Source: a virus
Lineage: Duplodnaviria; Caudoviricetes
DNA: 55,076 bases
IMG/VR virus record: IMGVR_UViG_3300025132_000049
Coordinates: 1 to 55,076 of that record
Strand: one strand, 5' to 3'
Part shown: positions 8,501 through 36,215 of the stretch, piece after piece
How positions within the stretch are numbered: position 1 is the stretch's first letter
Layout: every line of letters begins with the position of its first letter
The notes under the pieces: model-generated
Seen by the model: the letters and a program-made list of their open reading frames with translations, nothing else
What the model was told of the DNA's origin: nothing
The model's database searches: none
Translations under genes and position numbers: made by a program

Positions 8501-9322
8501 CGCCCAATCCTTATACCATCTACAAGTAGTCAATAAGTATTTAGTATTGTAATCTAATTGGTTTTTATTTACTAATCTATCTTCATAGAAATACCAAGTA
8601 GGTCTACTAACTGTACTACTTACATCATATTTATCATTAATAACACCAGATGTACTATCAGTTAATCCTCTGAGACCGTAAGATACTGCTACTACATTTA
8701 TATCTGTTTTTGCTGGCCCTTGATAGATTTCAAAGTTAGTACCTTTAGGTATAGATGAAGGATATTTAGGCTCAAACTCTATCCCATCACCATAGTAATC
8801 AAAAGTAGTTAATTGTTTTATTTTAGCAAAATGTGGTCTAATTGATAATGCACCATCATCCCCTTTAATTTCTGGATTAATTAAAACAAAGTAGTCATTA
8901 GTTTCTAAATCAAGGCTTTCAGCCCCACCAACAGCAGACAATAGTTGACCTGCAACGCTTGCCTTTGGGTCATAAACTCTTAATTTATATGAAGGAGTTT
9001 GTTGTTTATTAGTTGCATAATTTGCTAAAACATTTGAATTACTAGAAGGTATTATTCTATTTACTATTCTATTTTTTCCATGTGCTGAAATATCTGGTTC
9101 AGTAGTTACACCATAACTAGTTGGTGCGTTTCTTATTTCAAAGAAATTGGCCGAGTTTTCTACCGGACTAGTAGGTAAACCCGGATTTTTTAATACAGGA
9201 TTTACAGAAGTATTAGAAAAAGCAACATCTGGAAATGCGTTTTTTCTATTAGCATAGGTATAATTTAATGTTTCAGTATGTGTTTTATTATTATTTAAAA
9301 CATAGACATAATTATCAGGCAT
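2585..9322 (-). CDS. Giant (2245 aa) tail tip / baseplate hub protein
   Basis: S/T/N-rich beta protein in the tail module. C-terminus NKVIVIG...IDSNIKYAKEAQIKAEQLL...KPGDLITLNFP...YIIFEIE resembles the central tail hub (GpJ/Tal-type) C-terminal domain. Confidence 0.65.
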   Translation of the reverse strand: MPDNYVYVLNNNKTHTETLNYTYANRKNAFPDVAFSNTSVNPVLKNPGLPTSPVENSANFFEIRNAPTSYGVTTEPDISAHGKNRIVNRIIPSSNSNVLANYATNKQQTPSYKLRVYDPKASVAGQLLSAVGGAESLDLETNDYFVLINPEIKGDDGALSIRPHFAKIKQLTTFDYYGDGIEFEPKYPSSIPKGTNFEIYQGPAKTDINVVAVSYGLRGLTDSTSGVINDKYDVSSTVSRPTWYFYEDRLVNKNQLDYNTKYLLTTCRWYKDWAQVNTVISTTNSAINAYTENCEVYNTYTFSATDVGRSLWVGNNKDFLGIITDEDSGTNEITLDANRVTVNGGLGTALDAYQGRDLHHTVFLTEQEYGNIINDLGAMNQDALLVDNIRNKDIVLESGNTKDYDTDATYTFTPDRWDRAIRNYKRNTSDRTSAHTSFYTANYGKFYGELTGAKRHLYYKSSHLKNNIVDPIMDATVNYPRNKMSQIARVKVLDYSGIQHLKLKQNDKFVIRNSIHSATLGKYKIPYTVNSVSSSGTHKIKINNITESYDVRNDNFIKANDIIQVNNNYYVVDSIAAPTDIDNARAQEITVSLTKTDGALKFSSISTMESFSNADMYVRSWNGGLVGDFPIDTEAVYASNTFKRLTINGETINKTKSSLNDNRVVLLTPELVNHEITIDYGDSVHNQIKLSSDFTSKKYYQSTPISMMYYLSGNYAIDEEIFSGSVEDINSVNKGGMISFEISGRDKLSKLLGDTTTKNLNHTDDVIYSSLIPVLTDTIDVTTATTTLTATGTETRLRILDAQHDLGIIPKPYDVLLDSSGNLVGEISNVGAASQVLGSYRDYTITLSCANITETEISTGSTVKLWQPRTSNYQSSFKALSKNPQATSSPTDLDSTGDKGVVFVDGKKVVYSDTNAVTYSDLAYTSATFGYGQDGSLGYDILDVDSIGTKDSKFSFRLGLEKDSKTTYSSIVSPSITTGFNIVDSIKMEGESSTITLAPTFPIVLGSVETNTSDSRFSSENNAYLYLVNRNIPSAGFIHRLKHEHDAIYTSSQMYRYLDLQHISEGEIKQTFDSVLNEGLKTQKIMGAAPAYCIKATGATNTLTATLTDSPYWGSNYHDASYTGPDKLTSTNDGNGDALGLPKEFPISRTGTTSSTKAFNLNQRDYRTKKYELLSVGDLFPESKLRYNNLLNQSDFSSFGILTEANPQKGNNVSHTNYTGSSFELLRKENSYDMSKIDTASIAPTAVKRWGIMRLVEATFDWHFNPVDAESLKDITNLPTIDNFSYPRFKTPVNLAFTFTTTSSSITFSGNNTYSFKKDDMIYKQDGTLVARFDADHSLLSGARTVSSNITIFQTISSGEAGFVSNVLLWDMLADDGFGIDTLAHTSKMRHINAYLLIKEIDKSYLEHVPRIGNSDLFNSHNIYLPIIAEAFQAGSGANNDNFTNSPFHEEGDWQIDFDGSGSWPDSNDYATKYWHLSRVINALQMPTFSSSNNSPSQYHADRGADLYSNCVAIFKHFKGSIQESQGSNERNISLTSSPLALDSSSNFTDRRSDLSSTNQGHDQQHSRNMRISKISVSGSSGAAFVGTKTTSREDNVETFTEPFSSEEGYTADGKEYNHRDAGVTTGEIYQTQMLIKPQINTGGTASSSIEITMNATNKHSWIHYVPNLTGYYLTKQDGSSTLKIINHVATTGSPSVHTLTLNANFDINSIYRLMKISETAFEDTPDFIEINKLIHSGLQYDIVPTNIRTGAIDTSNTDNYAEGIKSMYILLETDRAITNSNNLPEKLTVANANAMFSDGDAIDCYITDGKNTQRKTLTVTKTTATPLRFDYEGTLTGNGVVSFGETFTITTSNALDIKDTAYIGSSFSIGTDAEKAIEEILEDSGIDLDTSERNLTYTGAIVASDTTGLTISLSAAVASIAVGDVLYNHEGKLIGEVASGNTSTTLVLKDVDYDNETSTADIFYKPKAGEELVKYNRKPFILNTRFAENDVFTAVNFLASKKGLEYVFNKDKILIRDVDDYTTRRKYSLRYKDGQNLLSVENNTSLFDAANKVIVIGDNVKATAEMPTTRNTNTIKHIDSNIKYAKEAQIKAEQLLALHNTPAIKVTIEIEREGNMKLMKPGDLITLNFPNHGIPPDDYIIFEIENAMANISKIQVGTFNKTIAERLAEMNIEREGGFVTLLNKNVSVSTTSQMAFSEIGIEETSLHYSISSVVGTDVGWSTVIGWSTLYNPGTETTTTEEIKL

Positions 9323-13452: not shown

Positions 13453-15012
13453 TTAGCCTTGAATAATCCATTTGCCGTGATATTTACATTCATGTAGAGT
13501 CCTCGCGGAAAGAGTTAACGCGACATCTAGCATTCCTTTATCGTCTGGGAATGGTATATCTACTGTTTGCACAATATAATCTTTTAATGTTAAAGTTATC
13601 TTATCTGTATCTGCTGTATCATTCTTATCAAAAGTAATTACTATATTACTTGCAGATATTTCACCTTGCTTTCTTAACTCATCCCAAATAGTTCTATCAG
13701 TAACCTGTAAGTTTAATTGTACATCATATAATCTTTGACCTGTTGAATGAGCAGATATAATAGACCTATCATAATTACCTATGAATCTTTGAGGTGTAAT
13801 ATTATTAGTGATAGTTAAACTTCCACTTTTAACTCTAGCCAATGTTTGACCGAATGCTTCAAGATGTCCATCTGAAAACATGAATGGTAAATTATCTGCT
13901 TCTGCATTATAATTAAATAATGAAGATGGTGTCCTTACTTTTCTTTTTGGTGTATAATCCGGTAAACTATCATATGCTCTCCTAGTAACAGCATCAATAG
14001 TAGCCTTTACTTCTTGACCTTCTTCAAAGTTCATTGTAAATGTATTTACTTGACACCCTGTATATATTCTTGAAAACATATTTTCATCATTAGCATCTTG
14101 GTAATAATCAGCATCAAGAACATTACCTTTTTCATTAGTTATTTCTAATGCAAAAGAAGGTAAATTACCCGATTCTGATTCTGTAAAAGTATAATCTATT
14201 TTACTGTCAGCAGTTAACTTTAACATACTTGTATCAGCCGTTCCATATGTTTTAGGTGGGCTTATTGTTCCAGATTCTCTTCTGTGGAATGTTTTATTTG
14301 TATTATCATAATATACACTACCATTACTTGCTGCATTAGAAAGCGTATTACTACTATCTTGTGTAGCAGTAAATGTCATATTACCTAAAGCATAGTATAA
14401 CCATGAGCCATTATTTAAAGATACATCAATAGAAGCAGAACCGTATGATTCCGCACCTTTGTATTGTATTCCAAAGTTTCTTGTTCCACCTAATGCTAGA
14501 TTTACTTGTTTCATCTCAGCATCTACTGTTGGTGGAGTTATTGTATTAACTAAACCTAACCAATTATCTGATAATAAATTATTTTTTCCACTAATAACAG
14601 CAGGTGAAAAGGAAGGTGTTCCAAAACCAAGTATAGTCAATTCAATTATATCTGTATCTGTGCTACTTAACTCTTGATTGAAAGTAATTTGATATGCTGT
14701 ATTAGATTTAATAACTAATGTTGTTGTAGTTTGTAATACATTACTACTATTATAAACTCTTACTTCTGCTGTACATCCTTTATAGATATTAGCAGGTAAT
14801 TTATTTGTAGCATGGGCTGAACCGCCTGTTGCATCAACACCCCATGAAATAGTTGTTCTATCTATTGTACCGCTTGCTGTGTTTTTATATCTAAAACCAA
14901 GTCTATTCGTTCCATTAGAAGCAATACCTAATTGCATTCCTATATTATAATCCATTTCCGGCACTAACGTAGCCGATAACCCTGCCCCTGTATATACTTC
15001 ATTACTTGTCAT
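13453..15012 (-). CDS. Major tail tube protein
   Basis: PSFALEI...YTGCQVNTFTMNFEEGQEVKATID...KSGSLTITNN pattern of siphovirus tail tube proteins; position upstream of chaperone and TMP. Confidence 0.7.
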   Translation of the reverse strand: MTSNEVYTGAGLSATLVPEMDYNIGMQLGIASNGTNRLGFRYKNTASGTIDRTTISWGVDATGGSAHATNKLPANIYKGCTAEVRVYNSSNVLQTTTTLVIKSNTAYQITFNQELSSTDTDIIELTILGFGTPSFSPAVISGKNNLLSDNWLGLVNTITPPTVDAEMKQVNLALGGTRNFGIQYKGAESYGSASIDVSLNNGSWLYYALGNMTFTATQDSSNTLSNAASNGSVYYDNTNKTFHRRESGTISPPKTYGTADTSMLKLTADSKIDYTFTESESGNLPSFALEITNEKGNVLDADYYQDANDENMFSRIYTGCQVNTFTMNFEEGQEVKATIDAVTRRAYDSLPDYTPKRKVRTPSSLFNYNAEADNLPFMFSDGHLEAFGQTLARVKSGSLTITNNITPQRFIGNYDRSIISAHSTGQRLYDVQLNLQVTDRTIWDELRKQGEISASNIVITFDKNDTADTDKITLTLKDYIVQTVDIPFPDDKGMLDVALTLSARTLHECKYHGKWIIQG

Positions 15013-15777: not shown

Positions 15778-16886
15778 TCAATTAAATGTAACATAACTTG
15801 TTTGCCTTTAATTATCTTATTTGCTTCTTCAACAAGTATATCATGTTTAGTTTTCAAATCTATATTAGAACCTGTTTCAGCAATTAGAATAGTATTATCA
15901 TCATGTACCAATATTTCTGCTGCTACTAGTTTAGTTGCTGCTTCATGTATCTCAGCAGGTACTCTTGACTTACCCCTAACATAAGTAACTCTAATAGAAT
16001 GATTTTCATAATAAGGATAATTTTGTCTAAAGAAGATTTTACCTTCATCTCCTATAACCCAATAATCTTCCTTTCTACCTGCTGATTCATTATCAACAAA
16101 TGATGTAGAAGAAGTTGGACTACCATGTGTTGCTGCAACAGTACATATAGTACCTGCATCAGAAGGTAATAGAGAAGTAATTGTTACTGATTTTCCATCA
16201 CTTGATGGTGAAGCATAAAAGAAATCAGATACATTTCTAGTAGTGCCACCGTTATCGGGTGCATCTGTTGTAGTTTTAATTGCAGTTTCACCTGTAAACT
16301 GTGCTGTTTTGTGAGGAAATACTTCATTAATAGCAGCACATATTTGTAACACAGTAGTTTTTTGACCGAATGTATCATAAAAACCATTTGCATTTCCTTT
16401 AGTTAATACAAATCTATAACCTGTTCCTGTATCTCCTACTCCTAAAGTAATTGTAAATGTTCCATTAGTAGCAGATTCCGGTGGAGTATATTTGATACTT
16501 GCAGATGCTAATTCTACATACTCACTACCTTGATAAACTTCTAATTTAATTATTTTTCTAATAGACTCACTATTTAATTGAATAAACCCTAAATAATCAT
16601 TCCAACTTTGTACGGGATATGCTGCCATATTCATTGTTTCAAAGTTATGAACCTCATCTTTTATTATTTCTGGCCTAAAAGAAAGTTTAACGCTATTATC
16701 TATTTTACCTTCTACTCTTTTTATTATCTTACCAACCATTGCTATACTAGGTACAGAAGAATTACTAAATGCACCTACTTGAAGTAAATCTGATACTTCG
16801 CTATGTGATGTGTAATATCCTCTACCTGATGAATAATCTGGTAGATATGTCATTGTATAGTCGCTTTCTGATGCTAATTTACCCAT
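15774..16886 (-). CDS. Head-tail adaptor (gp6/gp15-like) with a beta-rich insertion
   Basis: N-terminal YTSHSEVSDLL...IIKRVEGKID and C-terminal IRVTYVRG...VPAEIHEAATKLVAAEIL are connector motifs. Confidence 0.65.
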   Translation of the reverse strand: MGKLASESDYTMTYLPDYSSGRGYYTSHSEVSDLLQVGAFSNSSVPSIAMVGKIIKRVEGKIDNSVKLSFRPEIIKDEVHNFETMNMAAYPVQSWNDYLGFIQLNSESIRKIIKLEVYQGSEYVELASASIKYTPPESATNGTFTITLGVGDTGTGYRFVLTKGNANGFYDTFGQKTTVLQICAAINEVFPHKTAQFTGETAIKTTTDAPDNGGTTRNVSDFFYASPSSDGKSVTITSLLPSDAGTICTVAATHGSPTSSTSFVDNESAGRKEDYWVIGDEGKIFFRQNYPYYENHSIRVTYVRGKSRVPAEIHEAATKLVAAEILVHDDNTILIAETGSNIDLKTKHDILVEEANKIIKGKQVMLHLID

Positions 16887-18696
16887 TTATATACCTCTCT
16901 AATTTTCTTAGTTGTCTTTTTATTGAAGAATGAAATGTTCTTCCTGTAATACTAACATCTGATATTGCACCACCTTCTAACTCTCTACTTCTTCCATCTT
17001 TTGTTGGTCTACTATATCCACTAATTTTCGGCTTACTACCCATTTCAGAATTATATGAAGTAGGTTGATGCTCAAAGTATTCAACAAAGAACACCTTTCT
17101 ACCTTTATATTTAGTAGTATTAAGTTTATAAACATTCCATTTTTCATCTAATAGTGTTTTATGATTTCTTTTATGTTCTTCTGAACTGATACCACTAGCC
17201 ATTGTTGGTCTATCAAGAGTGATTTCAAGTGCCTTAACACTAGCCTCTGGTACTTTTCTTACTTTTATTTCCCATCTATGTAACCCTATATTTCTTGGGT
17301 CTAACATGGCTTCATAGTTATCCTTTAATGTTTTATTTTTTTCTGAAATATCTTTAAATCCTGTTTTAGAAACATTTGGTATTTCCCCAATAGGTTCGTC
17401 AAATAATTTAATATCTCCTTTACTACTTGCATCGTCAGCATGAATTACAATATCCATTACGCTTTCACTTTTTGGCTCTACTAATTCAGAATATATTTTT
17501 TGTTCTAATTCATTAGTAAATGGTTTTTTATCATCTCCACGTCTTTTGTCATCAACATATTTTTTAATGAACCTTTCTTCTTTATTAGATAAACGCTTTT
17601 TACCTATGGTGTTTCGTTCTGTAAGATAATCATTTAACTGTTTGCGAGATATAATATTAGCATTAAAACAATTTAAGATAATTTCTTCTTCTCTAGAATC
17701 TAATAAATCATATTGTGTTGTCGCTACATCTTCGTATATGTCATTCCATAACAATTTAAGATTTATTTCAATTAGATATTCTTCTATTTTAGAATCCTTA
17801 TTTGCTTCCTCTTCTAAGTCTGATGGTAGCCAAGGTAATTCTAATTCTTTCTTTAAATCAGATAATTCTGGATAAGTAGGAGTGATATTAATATTATCTG
17901 GGTTATCACTAAAATCTTCTTTTAGACTTTCTAAAGTAACTTCTGCCTTGCTTATCTTATCCTTTTTAGGATTAATACCTGCTGCATCAAATATATCATT
18001 AAACATTTTTTCTGTATCTATTGTTAACTCATAAACTATATCCATAGCAGGTGTATTATTGTAATCTCCTCCACCTACTTCTTTAGATTTAATTACTTTA
18101 ATTTCAGTATATTCATGTAATTTTTCTGTTGCATCATTATATACTGCTCGTCTTTTTCTACTTGCTCCTTGAGCAGACTGAGCAACACTTCTAAGTTTAC
18201 TACCTGCCGAAGAGGTTCTACTAACACCTATAATACTATTAAATGTTCTAGTATTTAGATAACCTGATACTTTAACATCAATGTCTTTGACGTTTCTCAA
18301 TACTCTTTGTAAATCTTCTTGGTCGAAGGAATCTTCATGTCTTTTGAATCTCAATTTTCTCATTATCTGTTCTTGTAGTAGTTCTTCTATATCCATTTGC
18401 ATTAATGTATTGTAAGCATCCTTAACATATCCATCATACTCATCCCTAGACCATTCCATTTCTGTCATTTGTTCTTCTGCATTATTTAAAAAATCATAAT
18501 CAAAATAATGCCGTAAGTTTCTTTCTATGTTTAGGTAGTCTCCTTTAGCAGAAGGACTAACTAAAAACTTAACCATTAATTTAAATAAATCGTTAGACGT
18601 TCCTTTGTCACTTTCATCTAATTTTAATGTATTGCCATCTAAAGAATAATCATTACTATCATCATCTAATATTAACTTAGAAGGAATAGTAATCAT
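16879..18696 (-). CDS. Hypothetical protein, 605 aa
   Basis: Long ORF with an upstream GAGTGA RBS-like site, coupled to the adaptor gene; no motif recognised. Confidence 0.6.
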   Translation of the reverse strand: MITIPSKLILDDDSNDYSLDGNTLKLDESDKGTSNDLFKLMVKFLVSPSAKGDYLNIERNLRHYFDYDFLNNAEEQMTEMEWSRDEYDGYVKDAYNTLMQMDIEELLQEQIMRKLRFKRHEDSFDQEDLQRVLRNVKDIDVKVSGYLNTRTFNSIIGVSRTSSAGSKLRSVAQSAQGASRKRRAVYNDATEKLHEYTEIKVIKSKEVGGGDYNNTPAMDIVYELTIDTEKMFNDIFDAAGINPKKDKISKAEVTLESLKEDFSDNPDNINITPTYPELSDLKKELELPWLPSDLEEEANKDSKIEEYLIEINLKLLWNDIYEDVATTQYDLLDSREEEIILNCFNANIISRKQLNDYLTERNTIGKKRLSNKEERFIKKYVDDKRRGDDKKPFTNELEQKIYSELVEPKSESVMDIVIHADDASSKGDIKLFDEPIGEIPNVSKTGFKDISEKNKTLKDNYEAMLDPRNIGLHRWEIKVRKVPEASVKALEITLDRPTMASGISSEEHKRNHKTLLDEKWNVYKLNTTKYKGRKVFFVEYFEHQPTSYNSEMGSKPKISGYSRPTKDGRSRELEGGAISDVSITGRTFHSSIKRQLRKLERYING

Positions 18697-18705: not shown

Positions 18706-19422
18706 TCATGCCAACCAAGCCGCCCATGCAGCCCCTTTCTGTATCATCTTACCTAGACCCATTCCAGAACCCGGAGGTGTATACGATGGTTGTCCGGTGG
18801 CAGGGTCTATCCAATATGGATTACCCATTGTATCTGTACCTGCCGGAGGTACAGGATAACCAGAAGGATTGTTAAATGCCTGTTGTTGTTGCATCATCAT
18901 ATTATTTGCTTGAACCATAGGGTTTCCTCCACTAATTTGTGAAGGGTTTAATCCACCTGCATTAGGTACTCCTTGTTGTGGCATACTTTGTGGTATACTT
19001 TGTGGTGTAGATGTTTGTGCAGTAGAAAATCCTTGTGCTTCAAGATACTGTTGTTTAGCCATCTTTCTTTGCATAATAACTTCTGTATTTAATGCAGCAG
19101 CCACTATTGATTGAATATCTAATTCTATGTTCTCAGCAGTAATTCTTTCATATTCTCTTAATGAATTAGGCTCTACTTCTAAATCACCATTAGTATTATT
19201 AATAAACTTTAATTTTGTTAACATTTGACTTACTACTCTTTCAGTAACATCTTCTAGCAGTTTTTCAAATGCTGTTAGAAATTGTACGCCATGATATTGA
19301 AAAAACTCTTCTACATGGTTTTCTTGTAAAGTCAATAAATTATTTACTGCTTTAAAATCGGCAGCCCCTTGCTGCGATATTTGATTCGCTATACTTGTAT
19401 TACTTGTTCCAAAAACACCCAT
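18706..19422 (-). CDS. Helical protein with Q/P/G-rich low-complexity tail and amphipathic C-terminus
   Basis: PQSIPQSMPQQG..., QQQQ, and ending LGKMIQKGAAWAAWLA. Confidence 0.65.
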   Translation of the reverse strand: MGVFGTSNTSIANQISQQGAADFKAVNNLLTLQENHVEEFFQYHGVQFLTAFEKLLEDVTERVVSQMLTKLKFINNTNGDLEVEPNSLREYERITAENIELDIQSIVAAALNTEVIMQRKMAKQQYLEAQGFSTAQTSTPQSIPQSMPQQGVPNAGGLNPSQISGGNPMVQANNMMMQQQQAFNNPSGYPVPPAGTDTMGNPYWIDPATGQPSYTPPGSGMGLGKMIQKGAAWAAWLA

Positions 19423-19423
19423 T

Positions 19424-20095
19424 TTATTCCACCTCTTGTTCTATTGTTTCTTGTTGTATTATTCTAGTTCCTTTTGTCATTAATTCAATTACTCTTTTAT
19501 TAATTGCTTGACTTTCTATTGTTAATCTAAACAGTTCATCCTCTTTTGATACGTCTAACATTTTAGGTGGTCTTATAGTCCAACCTGCTGCTGACAATGC
19601 TTCGATGTCTTGTTGCCTTAATGAAGTTAGCGGCCCAGATTGTAACATCTTAGGCATCTTAGGTTTAGGTATATATTGGTTAAACTCTAAACCATGTTCT
19701 TCTGCAATGATTTGTTGTTCTAACATTTCATATTGTTTGTATAACGCTGAATGTTTATTACAGTAAGTACCTCTCATTGGATAACCTTTCCTTACTTTAT
19801 GTAAAGGTATAGTTGGTCTCATTGGGTCTGATACATCCCATACCTTATGTGTACCACATACTACACATCTATCTTTAGTATTAAACTTAAATCCATGTCG
19901 TATTTTCAATGTCTTTTTCTTTTCTGGTAAAAGTACCTTAATCATTTCTTTCAATTGTTTTTTTGGTTTATCACTTTTATATTCATATTTCATTATAGCC
20001 CCTGCTGCTCTAGCAAACTTCAATGGGGGCATGAACGGGTTTGCTACTGTTGCATTAGTAGCACCTATCAAACTTGGCGGTGTATATCCTATCAT
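19424..20095 (-). CDS. Zinc-binding protein (CxxC...CxxH)
   Basis: RCVVCG ... YCNKH motifs. Confidence 0.6.
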   Translation of the reverse strand: MIGYTPPSLIGATNATVANPFMPPLKFARAAGAIMKYEYKSDKPKKQLKEMIKVLLPEKKKTLKIRHGFKFNTKDRCVVCGTHKVWDVSDPMRPTIPLHKVRKGYPMRGTYCNKHSALYKQYEMLEQQIIAEEHGLEFNQYIPKPKMPKMLQSGPLTSLRQQDIEALSAAGWTIRPPKMLDVSKEDELFRLTIESQAINKRVIELMTKGTRIIQQETIEQEVE

Positions 20096-20159
20096 TTTAT
20101 TTCCTCCTTACATTCTTTACATTGACACATTAGTGCCATTGAACAATTATTTGTTATCA

Positions 20160-20828
20160 TTAGTAATCCTCTATCATTGTTGCTATTCCTCTATATACCA
20201 TTTCTGAATCTGACTTTGCACTTACTATATATTTGTAGCATGGTATTCCTTTATCATTTAATTTTTGCATTCCATCTTTAAAAGCATCAAATATTGGGTG
20301 ATTTTGTATATCATCATATTCATATGTATCTTTCCATAAATCAAACTTATTAGCCCATAAACCTACTGCTACCGGATAATCATGGTTTTTCTTTTTTTGT
20401 CTCCTATTAATATTATCCCAATAACGTGAACATATTGTATCTACTAAAAATGTCCAACATAATTGTTGTTCTATATCATAGTGTTTATCCATGTGTCTAT
20501 CATCAATCATAAAAATAATGTATTTAACTTTACGGTTTTTCATATCCTTTAGCCACTCACCCCAATAAACTGTTTCTCCTCCTATATCTGCATTTTTTAT
20601 TGTATGTTGGTCTCCATCAATTTTAATAGTTTTTCTTGTTGCTCTACCTCTGCCAACGGTTCTTTGTTTAATTTTTGGCACTTCTCCTCTTGTTCTTAAT
20701 TGATGATTTAAAGTTGTTTTTCCTACCCTAGTTGCACCATATATACCAAAAGGTACTGCATGAACCTTTTTCCACATTAAACCAATTTGTTCTGCCATTA
20801 TAATGACAAATCCTGTCATCACCGACAT
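20160..20828 (-). CDS. Small GTPase, Ras superfamily, Arf/Sar-like
   Basis: G1 GATRVGKTT, G2 RTVG, G3 DIGGE, IIFMIDD, G4 ANKFD, G5 SAK; hydrophobic N-terminal helix. Confidence 0.85.
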   Translation of the reverse strand: MSVMTGFVIIMAEQIGLMWKKVHAVPFGIYGATRVGKTTLNHQLRTRGEVPKIKQRTVGRGRATRKTIKIDGDQHTIKNADIGGETVYWGEWLKDMKNRKVKYIIFMIDDRHMDKHYDIEQQLCWTFLVDTICSRYWDNINRRQKKKNHDYPVAVGLWANKFDLWKDTYEYDDIQNHPIFDAFKDGMQKLNDKGIPCYKYIVSAKSDSEMVYRGIATMIEDY

Positions 20829-20837
20829 AACATAACC

Positions 20838-21071
20838 TCAGAATAAATGGTGATAAAAAGCCCAAAAGCCCTCCCACGCTTCTTGAAAGAAATTAATTCC
20901 AATTAAAGGTAAGGCATGACCTATTAAAAATCCACTAATTGTTGATATAACACCCCAAAAATAAAACCTTGCTCTTAGAAACCATATATCAGCAGAATGC
21001 GCTCTTTGCATATCATACGCTAAAGAGGTTTCATCCATACCAAATGCTATGGTTTCTAACATATAAATCAC
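20838..21071 (-). CDS. Small membrane protein
   Basis: Hydrophobic FYFWGVISTISGFLIGHALPLIGI segment followed by an aromatic amphipathic C-terminus. Confidence 0.6.
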   Translation of the reverse strand: MIYMLETIAFGMDETSLAYDMQRAHSADIWFLRARFYFWGVISTISGFLIGHALPLIGINFFQEAWEGFWAFYHHLF

Positions 21072-21472
21072 TCAAGTTTTGCCAAAAATGACGGAGTAAT
21101 ACTTTGTTGTTGTGGTTGCTCAACTTGTTGTTGCATATATTGTTGAGGCATAATATTAGGAGACCTATACGCTTGCATACTTTGACGTATCTTCTCTCTT
21201 TGTTGGTCGTCTCTTTGTCGTTTATTCCAATAGGTTGCTATTTTCCTATCTAATAAAGTCATTTCTATATAATCATTCAGCAATAAATCAAAGATTGCTT
21301 TCATTGCTAGTATACCACCAACAGTCATTAATCCAAAGACTAATGCGTGTGCATAATCATTGAAGGCAATCATATCTCCATACTTCGCATAGAAGTATAC
21401 ATTTGTTCCACTAATAGCACCAACGAATAATATCGTCATTACTAACTTTGTTTCTTTTTCCAACGCGGGCAT
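21068..21472 (-). CDS. Two-TM membrane protein with Q-rich tail (holin-like topology)
   Basis: LVMTILFVGAISGTNVYFY and ALVFGLMTVGGILAMKAIF hydrophobic helices, then a charged/Q-rich C-terminus. Confidence 0.6.
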   Translation of the reverse strand: MPALEKETKLVMTILFVGAISGTNVYFYAKYGDMIAFNDYAHALVFGLMTVGGILAMKAIFDLLLNDYIEMTLLDRKIATYWNKRQRDDQQREKIRQSMQAYRSPNIMPQQYMQQQVEQPQQQSITPSFLAKLE

Positions 21473-22595: not shown

Positions 22596-23966
22596 TCATG
22601 CACTCTTTAGGTTGGTAATTTTACCTTGACCCTTAAAGAAAGAACAACCTGTTTCTGCAATGGTTCTATACATTGCTTGGTTTCCTAGTGTTCCTACTCC
22701 GAATGGGTTTCCGTTATCAATTCCATCTTCAAAGTATTGTGTTGGCTTCATAACGCTCATCCAAAGATGGTCGGTATCAAGTATCAACATATCGCTTAAT
22801 GTGTTTGTAGCACTACTGTGTGATGTTTTAGGCATATCCTTACATGGGATAATTGGTATGTCAAAGTAAGTAGCGACTCTAAAGCCGACTTCTGAACCCT
22901 TAACTCCTCTTACACCATTGTGTGTAGGAATAATTTCCTTTCTATCCATAAATCTTTCTTGTGCTTGTAGCAAGTCACCAAGATGCTGAATTGTATCATA
23001 TCCTGTTAAGATAACTTTAGGACTACCACCATTTTGACGGATTCTTCTTAACATATCATTTAAGATAGTTAAAGTCATAACCCTACAATTAGCAGCAGCA
23101 TATCCATCACCATAATCTACTTCTGAATCTAAGAAAGACGCAGAAGCAGCACCACTAGACAATTGACGGTCAGTTGCACCGAAAATGGTCGTAATAGTTG
23201 TAGGTAGAGTATTTGCCGCAGCAGATGTTGCTAGAAGTCCAGCGTCATTCAATGCGTTTAACTCAGCACTTGAAGCAACTATCTTCAATAAAGAAGTATA
23301 TTGTCTACCAAGGTTTGTTACAGTATTAGCCTCATCGTATTTCTCAAGAGGCATTAGTAGCATCTTGTTTTGTACTTCTGCGTGGTGTTTACCCATATCT
23401 TCACGGATTAACGCTCTTAGGTCTCCAACACCGTCATCAATTTTAGCCATTTCTAGCGCAATTTCTGAAAACTCAAACAAATGAGCAACGGTTTTTGGGC
23501 TTGTAAACAAGGTTGTGTATTCTGGTGTAATAGCCGGAATATCATTTCCTGTTCCTAAAGAAGCATTTTCTGCAACAGCACCAATTAAATCTGCTCTTGG
23601 TGTTGCAGTACCTCTTGTTGTTCCTACTCCTGAACCACCAAGAGCAAAAGTAGAACCGCTTCCACCTTCTGCTCGGCTTTTCAAGATACGCCATCCACTT
23701 GATGTATATGGTCTCTTAGGTAGTATAGCCAAAGCATTAACTTCTTGGTTAAGCATAGACCATACTTTTTGTCCGTATATTTTGTTGTATAGTGAAGATA
23801 ATCCACTAGCACCACTCATAACTGATGTTGAAGCATCGTGAGCAGTATGTAGCCCACCAACAACACCTGCGCTCTTTAATAGAGCATTTCCTGTACCGCC
23901 CCTAATTCCATAGGAAGCAGCCTCTAAATCTTTCATTGTTTTAATATATCCACTCATTAAACTCAC
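22596..23966 (-). CDS. Major capsid protein (HK97 fold)
   Basis: Follows protease-scaffold; YGQKVWSMLNQEVNALAILPKRP, PKTVAHLFEFSE, GFRVATYFDIPIIP and QGKITNL are typical of archaeal tailed-virus MCPs. Confidence 0.85.
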   Translation of the reverse strand: MSLMSGYIKTMKDLEAASYGIRGGTGNALLKSAGVVGGLHTAHDASTSVMSGASGLSSLYNKIYGQKVWSMLNQEVNALAILPKRPYTSSGWRILKSRAEGGSGSTFALGGSGVGTTRGTATPRADLIGAVAENASLGTGNDIPAITPEYTTLFTSPKTVAHLFEFSEIALEMAKIDDGVGDLRALIREDMGKHHAEVQNKMLLMPLEKYDEANTVTNLGRQYTSLLKIVASSAELNALNDAGLLATSAAANTLPTTITTIFGATDRQLSSGAASASFLDSEVDYGDGYAAANCRVMTLTILNDMLRRIRQNGGSPKVILTGYDTIQHLGDLLQAQERFMDRKEIIPTHNGVRGVKGSEVGFRVATYFDIPIIPCKDMPKTSHSSATNTLSDMLILDTDHLWMSVMKPTQYFEDGIDNGNPFGVGTLGNQAMYRTIAETGCSFFKGQGKITNLKSA

Positions 23967-25174
23967 TCCTCAAATTGTGCTACATAATTATTTATTTCAT
24001 TCCAAGACATTCCACTAACATCAGGTACATCAATTTCCATTGTTTGTGCCTTTGCTATTGTTTCTGTTTGTTCTGAAAGAGACTTTCTCAAGGTAGCAAA
24101 CTCTTCTTTAAGTGCCTCAACTTCATTTTTAGCATCATATTCGCTTCTAGCAACACTAGCCTTACGGACAGTTGTTTCTTCTGCGAATCGTTGTGCGAAT
24201 TGTTTCTTTAGAGAATCATATGCCATTTTCTCTAATTGTTCCGCTTTAAACGCTTCATACGCTTTTTCTACATTACCTGTTGAAAGGTCTAAAGTAGAAA
24301 ACTCATCGTCATTCCACTCTTTATATAGAGAACCTAGTTGACCTGCTTGTTCATGCTTTTTGCCTTGTGTTTCTTCACCTGCACCTGCATTTTCAACAAA
24401 TCCTTCTGGCCCTGTTCTGCCTTTCATTTCAGTATCAGAGTAACTCATTTCAACATCATCTTCTTCTTCATCAAAATCTGCTGCTTCTTTGTCTTTACCC
24501 ATTTCTTCTAATGATTCATCCATCCCATCCATATTTTCAATGTCTAGTTCAGGTTCATCACCCTTTTCTTCTTCTTTCTTAAAATCGTTTAATTGACTCA
24601 TAAAGCCATTTAACTCTTCTAACGCTTTTTCCAATTTTTCACTCATTTTTTCTTTCTCCTCTTTTAAAATATCAAACTTTGCTTCTGGATTTATACCTTT
24701 CTCACAAACTGTTACCTCATGGAGTTCTAACTTGTCAATTTCATTATATTCGCCTAATTCTTCACTAGTCTTTTTTCTTTTACTTAAGGCTTGACCACCT
24801 ATACTAAATGAACGCAATGTTCCTTTTCTTATACCTCTTGAAATCTCTTTTGCTTTTTCTATGTCATCTCTTAATTTAATAACAACATAAAACCCTACAT
24901 CATCTACTTGTGTTCTATGGAGATTACCATGTTTATCTCTATATTTTTCTATTACATCTCCTACTTGAACATTTGAATGATTTGACATTACATTTCTATA
25001 TTTAGGGTCTTTCATGTATTTAACTACTGCTTCTTCTAATGCTTTTAATGTGATTAAATCATTTTGTTTATCTACTATTTCTATTGAAGCATAACCACCA
25101 ATAACTAAATCATCCGATTTAAGTATATTAAACTCAGTATCTTCCCCTGACTTCAACAATATTGCTTCGGACAC
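23963..25174 (-). CDS. Prohead protease fused to an acidic/coiled-coil scaffold
   Basis: IGGYAS..VDKQND, catalytic-type MSNH, SFSIGG and LHEVTV..GINPEA motifs of HK97-type proteases; the C-half is an acidic coiled coil. GTG start. Confidence 0.88.
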   Translation of the reverse strand: MSEAILLKSGEDTEFNILKSDDLVIGGYASIEIVDKQNDLITLKALEEAVVKYMKDPKYRNVMSNHSNVQVGDVIEKYRDKHGNLHRTQVDDVGFYVVIKLRDDIEKAKEISRGIRKGTLRSFSIGGQALSKRKKTSEELGEYNEIDKLELHEVTVCEKGINPEAKFDILKEEKEKMSEKLEKALEELNGFMSQLNDFKKEEEKGDEPELDIENMDGMDESLEEMGKDKEAADFDEEEDDVEMSYSDTEMKGRTGPEGFVENAGAGEETQGKKHEQAGQLGSLYKEWNDDEFSTLDLSTGNVEKAYEAFKAEQLEKMAYDSLKKQFAQRFAEETTVRKASVARSEYDAKNEVEALKEEFATLRKSLSEQTETIAKAQTMEIDVPDVSGMSWNEINNYVAQFEE

Positions 25175-25213: not shown

Positions 25214-27724
25214 TTAATCAATTTGCATGGTTAATTTTTTAAACCTATCTTGGGTAATATCCCATAAATCTTCCTTATCAGACCTTTCTAACATTGTTTG
25301 TTTTATTCCTGTCCAAGCAAGCCATGTTTTCTGGTTTTTAACAGGTATTACTCTCATATGTAATCTAGTATCAAACTTATCACCTTCTAATTTATATTCG
25401 TGATAACCATGCTTTTGCACACCAAGTAGTATTTTACCACTATCAATTAAATTATCCTTTTGTACGCTTCTAGATATTTCAGCAGGGTATTTACCAGATT
25501 TACCAAATAAGTTATAAATGTCTTTAGTTGAATCAATGTTTATAGTCCATGCTATTGTTTTATCTTTATATTCAATTATTAAATCTAAATTATCATCTTT
25601 TCTATCATATATTTTAAATGAACCATATCTGTTTTCATTTTCATCTTTATCTTTAATTATCAATTTACTATTAGCAGCAAACTTTTGTCTACCAATAGGA
25701 ATAAAGGCATCCATATCATTCATCCAATTTTTTAATTTTTTAGGTTCATTATCAAATAATGCTTCTGTTAATTCTGAATCATCTTTAACTAAAAACTCAA
25801 ATATTTCTTTAATGTGTAGTCCTTCTTCTTTAGGGTCTTTATCTTGAAGGAATTGTTTTATTTTAACTACTGCTTCTCCAGATTTGGCTTTATTTATTTC
25901 AGATAATTGGTCTTTCCATAAATCCATATCAGCAATAGCATTCTTTTCCATTAGACTATCTCCCACTACTCCATATACATTAAATCCTTCATAATCAGAT
26001 TTTAATAATATTTCAGCAGTACCGTGTATTCCATCAGTAATAGTATATTTCAAAAGTGCTTCTTCAACATTATACTTTAATGACTTTCTACCATCTTTAG
26101 CAAGTAATTCTAAAGTAACTACTTTTTCAGGTGTTTCAACTTCTGGTATCTCAATTACTTTTGCTGAGTATAAACTAAAGCCCTTCCCTGCCCTTCTGAC
26201 TTCATCAACTTTAACTCTAACAATAGAACCAATATTCACATTCTCTTTGGTATTCAATGCTTTACCTACTTTCAAATATGTTTTACCTTCGTATTCTGTA
26301 CCATCATATGTCCTAGTATCTTCTCCGTTTAGTGGCCCAATTCCAACAGTATAGGAGTATAAATTAGATTTTGTTTTTCTTTTTTCTAACACTATAACAT
26401 CTAAGTCAACAAACTTCTTGTATTTAATCCACTTAGGATTTTTCTTAACTCCAATGTAATAGGTAGATTCTATATCTTTGATGACTACTCCTTCTGATGT
26501 AGGAGATTCCATAATATCTTTAGCATACTTACTAATTTCCTTTAATGAGTCTGCCGTTCTAGTATTCTTTTTATTAGGAAACTCTAATTCATCTTCTGAA
26601 TGTTGTGCTAACTGATATTGTAATATGTTAATTCTTTCTCTAAGCGGATTATCCGCATGACTAGAACCATCGTGGCTCATTATATCAAATACTTTAGCCT
26701 TCAATGTAGCATCCTTGTATTTATTTTTAAATAAATGTGCTATTGTATCTGCCCTATGTAATGGTTCATCTCCATCATATAGTATTAATTCAGCATCTAA
26801 TATCATTTCACCAAACTTCTTTTGTTTCATTATCTTAATTATTTTCTCACATTTATCAGAAATATCCTTTTCATTATATGTAAATACTTTAACACTATTA
26901 TTATTCTTATGTATCTGGATTCTAATGCCATCATATTTTTCTTGGACTATCCATTCTCCGCTAAATCCTTTCAAATCTTTAATATCATCTACTTCAAATA
27001 TTCTATACATTGGTTTATTAGGTACAATAAAATCTATTTCTGATTTCTCTTCATCACTTTTCTTTAATTCTATCTGGGCTAATTCTTCCCATTCTTCCTC
27101 TGTTTTGTATTCTAAAAACACTTTTTTCAATAATTCTAATGCTCCTTTAAACTTACTTTCTATTCTTTTAGAATCTTTATTGTCGCCATAGTGTTCTATA
27201 ATATACAAAGGTACATCTTTTATTGATATATCTAATCCTTCTATATTATTAGTTAGTTTATCTGGTTTCAAGTCATGTTTTTCCCATGCTTTAGCGGGAA
27301 TACTTTCAGAATCAGAACGTAATGCGTAATGAATAAATATAGCAAATAAATTACTACTTCTAATTAAATTGGGTATTACTTCATCACCCATCTGTCTAGC
27401 AAAGGGGTCATTCAATTCATCAGAATTAAATCTCAATTCTTTAATAGAATCAAATAATTTCTTAGCATCATAAGATTGTGGATTCATTACCTCTTTACTA
27501 AATACATTATCTTCTTCTAAAAACTTTTTTAATGCGCTAGCAAAATCACCTAGTCCGTCAAAATCCTCTCTTATTTGTTTAACAGAAGTAATCCAATTAT
27601 TTCTATATTGCTTTGGTTCTTCTTTTGCTGAAAGATAATTATATCTAACATCCTCGTAAAAATCTAATATACGCTTCGCCAATGCTTTACTATCCTTACC
27701 GACAAAAGCATCTTTTAAAAGCAT
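25214..27724 (-). CDS. lig: ATP-dependent DNA ligase with N- and C-terminal extensions
   Basis: Motif I QEKYDGIR, III ILDAEL, IIIa VFDI, IV EGVVIK, V WIKYKK, plus an OB domain. The C-terminus resembles a degenerate LigD 3'-phosphoesterase fold. Confidence 0.9.
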   Translation of the reverse strand: MLLKDAFVGKDSKALAKRILDFYEDVRYNYLSAKEEPKQYRNNWITSVKQIREDFDGLGDFASALKKFLEEDNVFSKEVMNPQSYDAKKLFDSIKELRFNSDELNDPFARQMGDEVIPNLIRSSNLFAIFIHYALRSDSESIPAKAWEKHDLKPDKLTNNIEGLDISIKDVPLYIIEHYGDNKDSKRIESKFKGALELLKKVFLEYKTEEEWEELAQIELKKSDEEKSEIDFIVPNKPMYRIFEVDDIKDLKGFSGEWIVQEKYDGIRIQIHKNNNSVKVFTYNEKDISDKCEKIIKIMKQKKFGEMILDAELILYDGDEPLHRADTIAHLFKNKYKDATLKAKVFDIMSHDGSSHADNPLRERINILQYQLAQHSEDELEFPNKKNTRTADSLKEISKYAKDIMESPTSEGVVIKDIESTYYIGVKKNPKWIKYKKFVDLDVIVLEKRKTKSNLYSYTVGIGPLNGEDTRTYDGTEYEGKTYLKVGKALNTKENVNIGSIVRVKVDEVRRAGKGFSLYSAKVIEIPEVETPEKVVTLELLAKDGRKSLKYNVEEALLKYTITDGIHGTAEILLKSDYEGFNVYGVVGDSLMEKNAIADMDLWKDQLSEINKAKSGEAVVKIKQFLQDKDPKEEGLHIKEIFEFLVKDDSELTEALFDNEPKKLKNWMNDMDAFIPIGRQKFAANSKLIIKDKDENENRYGSFKIYDRKDDNLDLIIEYKDKTIAWTINIDSTKDIYNLFGKSGKYPAEISRSVQKDNLIDSGKILLGVQKHGYHEYKLEGDKFDTRLHMRVIPVKNQKTWLAWTGIKQTMLERSDKEDLWDITQDRFKKLTMQID

Positions 27725-31053: not shown

Positions 31054-31803
31054 TTAAACCTTCCAAGTTAATTTTCTTAGTTGGTATATATTATACCAAT
31101 CAAGAGTTTTACGATTCTTCATAATTCTTTTTACAACCAATTCACTTTTAGTTAATTCTGCGTCTGGAGTGTTAAGTAATTTCATTGCATATTCATATTC
31201 CTCTTCGCCTAACTCTCTTTTAAGTTTTTTAAAGTAGAACGTATCACGCTTATTTCTTCTTTCATCATTATTTATTTTAGAATAGTGATGAGTATAGGGT
31301 AGACTACTCATATCCGATAACATATTATGACGAAGACTACCAGATGAATATTTACTTCTTTTAGCGGAACGGTCTATATTATTCCAAATCTCAGATACTA
31401 GATGTCGCAACCTAGGCTTATCTCTATCAAAGATTGCGTTTCCTGAATAGAAAAGTTTTTTCATACTAGTATTCAATTCTTCTGTACTTATTTTTTTTAA
31501 TTTATCAAATGTGGCAATTCTATCTATTTCATCCAGAAACATACCCGTTGTGAGATTACTGTAAGTAGCATTAGAAAACTTAAACTCAATAGAACCTTTC
31601 ATGTCAAGAGTTAGTGCCTCATAATGGTTGAAAATATTTCTTAATGCCGTGTGGTTAGCATCTGTCATCTCATCTTCTGTTAAGTATAAAACATTAAATC
31701 TATGACTTCTTTCATCAACAGGTTTGAGGAAACGATGTAAAAAAAGTATTAATTTAGTTGCTTCCGGCCATTCATTAGATGATTTTAATATTCCCATCCA
31801 CAT
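31054..31803 (-). CDS. Hypothetical protein with W-tag (MWMGILKS)
   Basis: Coupled to the portal stop (TAATG). Confidence 0.6.
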   Translation of the reverse strand: MWMGILKSSNEWPEATKLILFLHRFLKPVDERSHRFNVLYLTEDEMTDANHTALRNIFNHYEALTLDMKGSIEFKFSNATYSNLTTGMFLDEIDRIATFDKLKKISTEELNTSMKKLFYSGNAIFDRDKPRLRHLVSEIWNNIDRSAKRSKYSSGSLRHNMLSDMSSLPYTHHYSKINNDERRNKRDTFYFKKLKRELGEEEYEYAMKLLNTPDAELTKSELVVKRIMKNRKTLDWYNIYQLRKLTWKV

Positions 31804-34775: not shown

Positions 34776-36215
34776 CTAAAAATTAAGTCCTGATATACCC
34801 GAAGGCATTCCAATTTGAGCCGTAGTTGGCCCATCAAATATCTCCATATCATCTAAGAGTATAAACGATGCGGTTGGAGTCTGAGTAGCAGCATTGGCTA
34901 AAGCAAGAGCCATAACCAAATCGTCATGTGCGCCAACTCCTTCAAACTTACCCGATTCTGTGATAGAAAACATAGATAATTCTTCTATAATATTCATTGT
35001 CATCTTTCTACTGTTATTATCACCATAAGGTAGACTTATTTTGTTGTTTTCAAAGTTCATTTGTAGTCCCAATATGATTTCTTGCTTCTTTCTTCTAGTA
35101 GTATTGAAATCTCTAATGTTTAAATCAGTAACACTTCTCAATTCTTGAGTAAATGCCTTAGCAAACGTATTAGTTTCATAAAGTACGGCTTCTGGCTCAA
35201 ATATTTTACCAATTAACTGTAATTTTTGGATATTTTCTCTAAATTGCACATTTTTTGCTCTATCTATGTGAACAATAGACTTATTTTTGTTTTCATCCAC
35301 CTCTAAAACGCAAATTACATTGTAATCTCCATCTGTTGATATAGCAGGGTCTACTCCAACATAATATTTGTAGCCTTTTTCTTTTCTATGCCCTAATTTT
35401 AAGATTATATGCTCATTTTTAGCATTTTCAAGATGTTCTTGTCCAAATAATGCTGTACCTGTTGAAATTGGTATACAAAGATATTCTCTTGTAAACTTTA
35501 ATGACCCAATTTCTGCTTTTCTTTGCATTAGTGCTTCATAATCCCATCTTTCAGGCCAAAGAGGGTCATTATTAGAATCTAAACAAGGATATTTTCTAAC
35601 TGTATATGCACTATTCTCTTCTAACTGTGTAAATATATCAGTATAAGTAAAAGGAGTACCTATCATTCTAAGGTTAGCAGTATGGTGAAGTGTTGGTATC
35701 ATGTCTCCAAAGAACCAATCTGTAACTCTATTAATACCTGTCAAACTAAACTCTTTCAAAGGGTCGTCAATAATAATTTCTTGAGGGTGAAGTCCTCTAA
35801 TCTGAGAACCAACAGACCTTTCTAATATAGAATTACCATTAGTTAATGTAATGTTACCAATAGCCCATCCTCTTGATGGTCTAAACTTCTTTAATTGTGG
35901 TATGTTGAAATATCTGTCAATTTCTCTCATATGAACTAAAGTCTGCTTTTGATTAGAAGATATATATAGCATTTGAAAAGGTGGTTCTTTAAACACAAGA
36001 TTCCATACTACCCAACTGTGCATAAATACAGATTTTCCGTGGTCTCTTGAGCAAATAATTACTGTTCTATCTGTGTTTTCCATTGTTTCTAACCACTCTT
36101 GCATATATGGTGGAAACATTAGACCAAGGACATTCTGAAAAAAATATGGAAATGAGTTCTTAGATAACTCCATATCCATTTGATGAGTAAAATTATATTC
36201 ATTTAACTCAGACAT
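34776..36215 (-). CDS. terL: Terminase large subunit
   Basis: Walker A SRDHGKS, Walker B IIIDD, motif III GTP, RNase H-like GVDPA and HDDLVMALALA. Confidence 0.93.
   Translation of the reverse strand: MSELNEYNFTHQMDMELSKNSFPYFFQNVLGLMFPPYMQEWLETMENTDRTVIICSRDHGKSVFMHSWVVWNLVFKEPPFQMLYISSNQKQTLVHMREIDRYFNIPQLKKFRPSRGWAIGNITLTNGNSILERSVGSQIRGLHPQEIIIDDPLKEFSLTGINRVTDWFFGDMIPTLHHTANLRMIGTPFTYTDIFTQLEENSAYTVRKYPCLDSNNDPLWPERWDYEALMQRKAEIGSLKFTREYLCIPISTGTALFGQEHLENAKNEHIILKLGHRKEKGYKYYVGVDPAISTDGDYNVICVLEVDENKNKSIVHIDRAKNVQFRENIQKLQLIGKIFEPEAVLYETNTFAKAFTQELRSVTDLNIRDFNTTRRKKQEIILGLQMNFENNKISLPYGDNNSRKMTMNIIEELSMFSITESGKFEGVGAHDDLVMALALANAATQTPTASFILLDDMEIFDGPTTAQIGMPSGISGLNF

Follow-up and report, generated by a model that had tools for sequence, protein, structure and literature searches.

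The five-gene cassette

This analysis concerns a cassette of five genes in the IMG/VR record IMGVR_UViG_3300025132_000049, a 55,076-nt stretch of a tailed virus that CheckV estimates at about 57% of the genome and that we refer to, at its full length, as the window. Five open reading frames (ORFs) are packed on the minus strand at window positions 18706-21472, in the gene order up2, up1, GTPase, dn1, dn2, with intergenic gaps of -4, 9, 64 and 1 nt, respectively:

21068..21472, minus strand: up2, membrane protein of 134 amino acids (aa)
20838..21071, minus strand: up1, small membrane protein of 77 aa (GTG start at 21071) or 74 aa (ATG start at 21062)
20160..20828, minus strand: small GTPase of 222 aa, divergent and putatively Arf-like
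19424..20095, minus strand: dn1, zinc-knuckle-like protein of 223 aa
18706..19422, minus strand: dn2, glutamine- and proline-rich (Q/P-rich) protein of 238 aa

The ratio of non-synonymous to synonymous substitution rates (dN/dS; Nei-Gojobori, four pairwise comparisons with relatives) is 0.07-0.29 for all five genes, values that are rough as dS is near saturation. The five genes are therefore real and under purifying selection. An initial annotation of this DNA, made from the sequence alone, had described five linked genes and quoted their motifs; all five ORFs were indeed found at these positions on the minus strand, and the motifs GATRVGKT, RT(VG), DIGGE, NKFD and SAK in the GTPase, CVVC and CNKH in dn1, and the C-terminal LGKMIQKGAAWAAWLA in dn2 were all read again from the DNA.

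Co-conservation across three viral lineages

The main new result of this work, shown by the comparison of viral loci, is the joint movement of the five genes through viral genomes, seen in three lineages and in three genomic contexts. We defined lineage A as the best 80 of the 507 GTPase matches in IMG/VR, whose GTPases are 69-93% identical to that of the window. Lineage B (80 viral loci) and lineage C (4 loci) were reached from distant GTPase representatives, and their GTPases share 27-32% identity with the window protein.

By tblastn, the lineage-A loci with enough flanking sequence contained up2 in 78 of 78 cases, up1 in 80 of 80, dn1 in 75 of 75 and dn2 in 68 of 68. Scored by position and length, the corresponding counts were 74/74, 76/76, 59/67 and 58/60, the misses being seven loci with an extra ORF, one with a fragmented dn1 and one with an insertion. 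The extra ORF, of 69-71 aa, lies between the GTPase and dn1 (L034, L053, L056, L059 and L065-L067), and the dn1 gene of L054 is in pieces. The whole region from the major capsid protein (MCP) gene to the tail tube gene is collinear in lineage A, so synteny there is not specific to the cassette.

The same layout recurs in lineages B and C as a 143-272-aa protein with hydrophobic helices and a Q/P tail, a 72-99-aa protein, the GTPase, a 256-357-aa protein and a 190-272-aa Q/P-rich protein. By position, up2 and up1 were each found in 76 of 80 loci, dn1 in 84 of 84 and dn2 in 83 of 84. The four up1/up2 exceptions (L133, L151-153) are a register artefact of the ORF filter, the GTPase ORF having been called long, and an 81-aa ORF is present in L153. 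Lineage B usually adds a 77-90-aa protein with two hydrophobic helices (dn3), about 2.3 kb downstream of the GTPase (69 of the 84 B/C loci by position), which has no counterpart in the window.

Homology between the lineages was assessed by comparing profiles of lineage A with those of lineages B/C (hhalign), after exclusion of lineage-B rows whose GTPase ORF did not fall within 225-262 aa (L133, L151-153 and, as truncated ORFs, L156, L159 and L160). Proteins in the same position gave the following probabilities and E-values:

GTPase: 100%, E 3.6e-40
dn1: 97.5%, E 5.9e-12
dn2: 97.0%, E 1.2e-10
up1: 58%, E 9.9e-5
up2: 10%, E 3.2e-3

Profiles paired off-position gave E > 0.05 in 24 of 25 pairs. 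The exception is a short motif of 17 columns common to the N-termini of dn1 and dn2 (E 6e-4), the dn2 family beginning with MGxFG.

The surroundings of the cassette change from lineage to lineage. Upstream of it, lineage B carries an ORF of 2,200-2,360 aa with no Pfam match, or one of 350-480 aa, or a short ORF; the first of these shows no BLAST similarity to the 2,245-aa ORF of the window (2585-9322, minus strand), which has no Pfam match itself. Downstream in lineage B, a homologue of the window's 218-aa ORF (46163-46819, minus strand) follows after about 2 kb and the gene of the large terminase subunit (TerL) after about 8 kb. Few proteins can be followed from lineage to lineage by BLAST; this 218-aa ORF is one of them (27-38% identity), and two CxxC motifs are present in its counterparts in lineage B. 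The GTPase and MCP genes are 20-23 kb apart in three near-complete lineage-B genomes:

G001: GTPase at 15.8 kb, MCP at 39.1 kb
G003: GTPase at 91 kb, MCP at 70 kb
G004: GTPase at 24 kb, MCP at 0.6 kb

In lineage C, a thermosome (Cpn60/TCP-1) gene is found two small ORFs upstream of the cassette (5250-6785 in L161 and 4820-6481 in L164; E 1e-133 to 1e-140), and the window MCP has no match in the 110-kb lineage-C record. The GTPase is single-copy in all four large related genomes. The MCP match in one of them, a complete record of 118 kb (G001:C1:39376-40275), contains one in-frame TGA, for which a sequencing error, a split gene or recoding are possible.

Within lineage A the median GTPase identity is 76%, and the GTPase is at least as conserved as the MCP in 67 of 76 loci, a comparison that favours the GTPase through sampling by GTPase match. 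At greater distance it is the MCP (38-46% in local matches) that is more conserved than the GTPase (27-32%). The initial annotation had treated the five genes as one module and had looked to synteny across related viruses; the architecture does recur, in 80 loci of lineage A, 80 of lineage B and 4 of lineage C, despite differing flanks. Because the five genes stay together while their flanks change, we consider it very likely, as far as gene order can tell, that they work together.

Relatives of the GTPase are numerous and come from viruses. We detected 358 clusters at E<=1e-3 in a set of 5.8 billion proteins and at least 507 IMG/VR contigs. A search of 1.84 billion clusters at 50% identity gave 58 representatives at E<=1e-3, none of which resembles an ordinary cellular GTPase family. 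Among 185,579 species genomes the close GTPase family was present on two contigs only, in one metagenome-assembled genome (MAG) titled Maricaulis sp., and none of 50,697 GenBank phage and archaeal virus records contained a relative. Judged by this distribution, the GTPase family is viral. On the two contigs of the Maricaulis MAG (L166 and L167), the viral GTPase has identities of 92% and 63%; both contigs probably belong to archaeal viruses and were mis-binned into an alphaproteobacterial bin.

The window has a G+C content of about 32%, and all ORFs of at least 135 aa are on the minus strand, with the exception of two embedded plus-strand ORFs. Pfam searches recognised the following genes around the cassette:

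34776-36215: TerL
31803-33470: portal
25214-27724, minus strand: ATP-dependent DNA ligase of 836 aa (DNA_ligase_A_M, E 8e-30)
23963-25174: prohead protease
22596-23966: SU10/HK97-type MCP, upstream of the cassette
13453-15012: tail tube protein, downstream of the cassette

The ligase gene is embedded in the morphogenetic block, with portal-side genes on one side and the prohead protease on the other. Directly downstream of the cassette, a 605-aa gene (16879-18696, minus strand) is by far the least conserved of the region; its equivalents in close relatives are 21-40% identical or unmatched, with lengths ranging from 493 to 927 aa, and it may encode a fast-evolving host-interaction protein. Searching PHROGs with ten proteins around the cassette matched only g370, to a family of unknown function, and no structural family matched any of the five cassette proteins.

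In the 50,697 GenBank phage records, the window MCP matched archaeal tailed viruses only (11 of 11 records), namely the Haloarcula viruses HVTV-1, HCTV-1, HCTV-5 and their kin (25-27% identity) or methanogen-associated Caudoviricetes. This agrees with the archaeal virus suggested initially: the element is viral and its host most likely archaeal. Relatives were found in Tara and further marine data sets, the longest of their contigs reaching 104 kb. The viruses of Marine Group II archaea, named magroviruses, are described as marine, with a genome of about 100 kb, a halovirus-like block of MCP, portal, protease and TerL, and an ATP-dependent DNA ligase, and virus-encoded chaperonins are a further reported trait (PMC5434244). 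Because its MCP matches those of archaeal viruses and its relatives are marine and reach 104 kb, we infer that the window derives from a magrovirus-like marine archaeal tailed virus, a label that rests on the match to this published description. The cassette had also been placed between capsid and neck genes and its expression expected to be late. In the window, the cassette does come directly after the capsid block, with the tail tube gene further downstream. An argument for late expression from this position applies to this lineage only: in the others, the capsid gene is 20-23 kb away or the neighbour is a thermosome gene.

The GTPase and its four partners

We followed the residues of the GTPase through 36 cassette GTPases from the three lineages, which span 27-93% identity. 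The features recognised in the window protein, all on the minus strand, are listed below, and invariance refers to these 36 sequences unless stated otherwise:

20763..20822, minus strand: N-terminal hydrophobic helix, residues 3-22, VMTGFVIIMAEQIGLMWKKV; predicted as a helix in the AlphaFold model
20715..20738, minus strand: G1/P-loop GATRVGKT, fitting GxxxxGK[ST]; G31, G36, K37 and T39 invariant
20658..20663, minus strand: switch I R56-T57, the G2 threonine following an arginine; both invariant
20574..20588, minus strand: G3 DIGGE; D81 and G84 invariant, Glu at the site of the Arf catalytic Gln
20388..20405, minus strand: polybasic RRQKKK, within an insertion that follows helix 3 and precedes strand 5; K146 invariant in alignment A1
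20340..20351, minus strand: G4 NKFD, guanine specificity; N160, K161 and D163 invariant
20214..20222, minus strand: G5 SAK

The GTPase thus has the complete G1-G5 set attributed to it initially, with G1-G4 residues invariant in 36 sequences, and its guanine-nucleotide site is predicted to be intact. G3 varies across lineages: lineage A (n=59) has GGE in 55 cases and GGQ in 4, while lineages B/C (n=60) have GGQ in 35, GGE in 8, GGD in 6 and GGH in 2, with 9 sequences unmatched by the pattern. At G5, taken as the first match of a loose pattern, SAK is present in 52 of 59 lineage-A proteins, and MAT, SAQ or AAQ in lineages B and C. Because R56 is invariant and the position of the catalytic Gln is variable, an intrinsic arginine finger could be imagined, which is speculation on our part.

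The hydrophobic N-terminal helix of the initial annotation was also recovered, residues 3-22 being both hydrophobic and predicted helical. It lies in a hydrophobic extension of 27-29 residues that is conserved in both lineage sets (A and B/C), with a Kyte-Doolittle mean of up to 1.59 and a hydrophobic moment of 0.12-0.27. The AlphaFold model (pLDDT 74.4, pTM 0.75) has a small-GTPase fold, its central beta-sheet flanked by helices, with helix 3-22 and the insertion around RRQKKK, and Foldseek matched it to hundreds of small GTPases at probability 1.0.

The two upstream genes encode the two-helix, Q-tailed protein and the small membrane protein expected from the initial reading. In up2, a weak hydrophobic helix (aa 10-28; nt 21389-21445) and a second one (aa 43-65; nt 21278-21346) are followed by a basic/charged helix and a Q/P-rich tail (dN/dS 0.08-0.13). 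In up1, a single hydrophobic helix (aa 36-62; nt 20886-20966) is accompanied by a C-terminus rich in aromatic residues (dN/dS 0.16-0.29); the GTG start at 21071 overlaps the up2 stop, and the ATG start at 21062 (74 aa) fits the orthologues, which are of 72-78 aa.

The dn1 protein, preceded at 8 nt by a Shine-Dalgarno-like GGAGG, consists of a basic helix, the pairs C77-x2-C80 (nt 19856-19867) and C112-x2-H115 (nt 19751-19762), and a helical C-terminal part. These pairs are the CVVC and CNKH on which a zinc protein had been proposed. C77, G81, G104, T110 and C112 are invariant in 36 sequences and H115 is nearly so, which makes a metal site plausible; since some members of lineages B and C have another residue in place of the second Cys of the CxxC, such a site would not be uniform across lineages. 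The dn1 model reached a pLDDT of 67.9, and the best ESM Atlas score was 0.79, with no named family. A predicted complex of GTPase and dn1 scored 0.00, the dn1 fold itself being uncertain, and bears neither way on binding.

The dn2 protein starts with an MGxFGTSN motif, continues with a helical core and a low-complexity stretch rich in Q, N, M, P and G, and ends in LGKMIQKGAAWAAWLA (nt 18709-18756). The helical core is kept across lineages while the low-complexity region shifts position, and the WAxWLA tail is conserved in lineage A only. Members of dn1 and dn2 matched nothing consistent in Pfam or NCBIfam and, by the sequence and fold comparisons made here, none of the four partners has a recognisable family or fold.

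A candidate membrane switch and its alternatives

Several lines of evidence point to an Arf-like member of the Ras superfamily (TRAFAC) that is not a proven member of the Arf family. The best structural neighbours of the GTPase fold are Arf/Arl and G-alpha proteins. A profile built from cassette GTPases only (A6) was closest, among genuine matches to solved structures, to 8oun_A (E 3.4e-6), the full-length GDP-bound GerdArfR1, an Asgard ArfR of the Arf family, followed by Rab33B and Arl8 (about 5e-4 to 1e-3). The distant homologue P0158, which aligns to the cassette profile at 99.2% (hhalign, E 2e-19), scores 57.2 bits with Pfam Arf and 35 bits with Ras, and the nearest named ESM Atlas clusters are of Arf type. 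An automatic JGI label, 'GTPase SAR1 family protein', is attached to two database clusters. P0158 was not found in the viral contig set, and a metagenome scan gave only loci 24-35% identical to it. RecA matches of profile A6 were disregarded as P-loop repeats in concatenated chains, no single stretch passing, and a single-sequence search of the PDB returned only spurious matches to complement C8. The initial annotation had called the protein Arf-like from motif details; its kinship stands on the fold neighbours, 8OUN and P0158, while assignment to a Pfam family above cut-off, or to Arf at E<=1, does not. We rate the viral family as a deeply divergent, virus-only branch of Arf-like GTPases and consider this branch new.

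Arf, Arl and Sar proteins (Asgard ArfR, 8OUN/8OUM; human Arl6, Arf6, Arf1 and Arl8) are among the closest known systems. The Arf consensus reads PT[IV]G in switch I and WDxGGQ at G3; the window protein has RTVG and ADIGGE at these sites, and distant members have SPTVG, SPTYG or PNTVG. In contrast to Arf, the window GTPase carries Glu in place of the catalytic Gln (as do most lineage-A proteins), an invariant Arg before the switch I Thr, SAK at G5 and a polybasic insertion of about 20 residues; it is about 40 residues longer, lacks Gly2, is known from viruses only, and has an N-terminal helix that is hydrophobic and not clearly amphipathic. The defining mechanism of Arf proteins is an interswitch toggle that couples nucleotide state to helix release (10.1101/2024.02.28.582541).

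Of special relevance is the ArvA-ArvB-ArvC operon (OapA/B/C) of Haloferax volcanii and other Euryarchaeota. The small GTPase ArvA is described as Arf-like and as having a helix at its N-terminus, and a Zn-ribbon protein of the same operon is its proposed GTPase-activating protein (GAP); deletion of ArvA abolishes vesicle formation and over-expression boosts it (PMC10927574). By that description the viral cassette resembles the operon in encoding a helix-bearing Arf-like GTPase with a putative zinc protein, and differs by its small membrane proteins, two or three in number, and its Q/P-rich protein. The Arv operon acts on the membrane (PMC10927574), and a membrane action of the viral cassette is suggested by this analogy. 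The OapB model (PF09846) had no match in the window at E<=1, in a search whose control found the Haloferax volcanii OapB, and the OapC model (PF09845) had none at E<=1 in the window or in four related genomes (G001-G004); we therefore liken the cassette to ArvA in its possible way of working and not in membership.

The viral cassette shares with the holin lysis cassettes of phages a set of small proteins, each with one or two hydrophobic helices, and a site within or next to the late genes; in lineage B this site is between tail-side genes and the terminase. It differs in that no endolysin or other lytic enzyme was found among the five proteins and 42 window ORFs, that no holin homology was detected with PHROGs or Pfam, and that it includes, as integral components, a GTPase and two large soluble proteins.

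A further parallel, by analogy only, is the initiation set of the COPII coat. Sar1, Sec12, Sec23/24 and Sec31 represent a helix-inserting GTPase, a membrane activator, a Zn-containing GAP/coat subunit and a Pro-rich stimulatory partner, and the viral cassette likewise combines a GTPase with a helix, a membrane partner, a putative zinc protein and a Pro-rich partner. For none of these viral partners was sequence or fold similarity found, however, and the viral proteins are much smaller.

We propose, with a probability of about 0.4, that the cassette encodes a membrane-acting GTPase switch that remodels the host membrane, possibly for egress, a reading that draws on the analogies above. The GTPase would cycle between GTP and GDP while attached to the cytoplasmic membrane of the host through its N-terminal helix, its polybasic loop and the two viral membrane proteins. 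Hydrophobic helices are present in up2 and up1 of every lineage, with the two-helix protein of about 80 aa in addition in lineage B; up2 and up1 could act as receptor or exchange factor for the GTPase. In its GTP state, the GTPase would recruit the two soluble partners dn1 and dn2, and the outcome would be a local remodelling of the membrane during infection. The likeliest purpose would be virion release through a weakened or opened cell envelope, timed by nucleotide hydrolysis.

The membrane-switch part of this proposal is moderately likely. The egress purpose is a guess by analogy and gene position. We prefer it because archaeal tailed viruses lyse cells by an unknown mechanism, because a lytic enzyme is not visible in the window, because the cassette is co-oriented with late genes, and because in lineage B it lies at the junction of tail genes and terminase, the usual site of phage lysis cassettes. 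The egress machinery of archaeal tailed viruses is described in a review as completely uncharacterised (PMC10791045). That the cassette is the missing egress machine of these viruses, rupturing the membrane in a GTP-timed manner with no holin-endolysin pair, is the boldest form of the proposal and appears rather doubtful.

A number of results weigh against the membrane switch, in addition to the OapB and OapC searches. The first group concerns the placement of the GTPase. The window protein passed no Pfam cut-off, with MMR_HSR1 at 21.0 bits (cut-off 21.9) and SRPRB and Roc also sub-threshold; Pfam Arf (PF00025) gave no match in the window at E<=1, and NCBIfam only TIGR00231 at 18.9 bits (cut-off 42.5). 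Foldseek's own ranking puts Rab, Rho and Ras first, and with a wider profile (A2) HRas/KRas (E 7.5e-9) are as good as 8OUN (E 2.5e-8). The Pfam Arf model passes its own cut-off in 13 of 14 control genomes of well-known bacteria and archaea, and the matches of the homologues P0154 (27.2 bits) and P0168 (26.8 bits) to this model therefore mean little. For prokaryotic or viral proteins in general, a bare PF00025 pass is weak evidence of Arf membership.

The second group concerns the mode of action. Of 59 lineage-A GTPases, 55 have Glu where Arf has its catalytic Gln, and the low hydrophobic moment suggests that the N-terminal helix may be a plain anchor and not a switchable amphipathic helix. For dn1, neither Foldseek nor an exhaustive VIA search found a PDB match, and no GAP or guanine-nucleotide exchange factor was recognisable in its fold. 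The cross-lineage homology of up1 and up2 is weak (58% and 10%). Consistent with the earlier remark that no endolysin is visible, no lytic enzyme domain was detected in the 42 window ORFs scanned with Pfam, at differing E-value limits and in a window that represents about 57% of the genome. Finally, roles in the virion or in its assembly would account just as well for a site among structural genes.

This last point leads to the alternative that the cassette serves virion morphogenesis or genome delivery, with the hydrophobic and Q/P proteins as internal or ejection proteins or assembly factors, and the GTPase as a chaperone or a packaged entry protein. Morphogenetic blocks are known to encode ejection proteins with hydrophobic segments, and the window cassette lies within such a block, from MCP to tail tube, co-oriented and with minimal gaps; in lineage B it can directly follow the 2,200-2,360-aa ORF, of a kind often tail-associated. 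Yet the cassette shifts relative to every structural gene and has a thermosome neighbour in lineage C, none of its proteins matches a PHROG structural family, and no GTPase relative occurs in the GenBank phage and archaeal virus records. We also know of no virion role for a nucleotide switch with an Arf-type membrane helix, and consider a virion function unlikely.

The membrane-linked features of the cassette would also serve in a takeover of the host membrane apart from release, for instance in superinfection exclusion, in altered transport or secretion, or in an ArvA-like redirection of vesicles as decoys or for spread. GTPase-driven vesiculation in Euryarchaeota has a precedent in ArvA (PMC10927574), and the mobility of the cassette among genome contexts is reminiscent of accessory 'moron' genes. 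Its single copy in all four large related genomes, its presence on more than 500 contigs and the median GTPase identity of 76% in lineage A fit a core function better, and the model searches found neither OapB nor OapC; such a takeover therefore seems improbable as well.

An aid to protein targeting or folding is less probable still. A membrane-anchored GTPase similar to the beta subunit of the signal recognition particle (SRP) receptor would in this case act with chaperonins to insert or assemble viral membrane or structural proteins. SRP receptor beta is itself an Arf-related GTPase with an N-terminal hydrophobic segment, and the N-terminal segment of the viral protein is hydrophobic enough to anchor it; the thermosome gene near the lineage-C cassette would also fit. 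The SRPRB scores, however, are 15.9 bits for the window protein, 22.5 for P0154 and 19.1 for P0158, all under the cut-off of 25 bits, no SRP or SR-alpha-like partner was seen, and the thermosome adjacency is limited to the 4 loci of lineage C, with no such gene beside the cassette in lineages A and B.

That five unrelated genes keep their order by shared descent only, as the collinearity of lineage A from MCP to tail tube might suggest, is very improbable given that they stay together across three lineages while all flanking genes change, with GTPase similarity down to 27-32% and most other genes beyond BLAST detection.

The membrane-switch reading concerns a system that we consider new: the five-gene membrane cassette is apparently undescribed in the literature that we found. 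No publication linking magroviruses or Caudoviricetes to such a GTPase was found, and a term search of the main texts of the magrovirus papers returned no mention of a GTPase; the supplementary gene tables of PMC5434244 and PMC11706807 may annotate the gene. A review of archaeal virus egress mentions the host OapA only (PMC10791045).

In the surface ocean, magroviruses are reported to rank with the most abundant viruses (PMC5434244). Whatever its function, the cassette is a five-protein module of unknown folds in hundreds of ocean viral genomes, and with its GTPase the Arf-like GTPases would gain a deeply divergent branch confined to viruses, just as archaeal relatives of Arf such as the Asgard ArfR and ArvA are under discussion as precursors of eukaryotic membrane trafficking. 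As a conserved, single-copy system, predicted to be membrane-linked and centred on a nucleotide switch, it is a concrete and testable candidate for egress. If the cassette proves to be an egress machine, it would represent a principle of lysis independent of a holin-endolysin pair, and a coat-like membrane remodelling of the Arf/Sar type in a prokaryotic virus.

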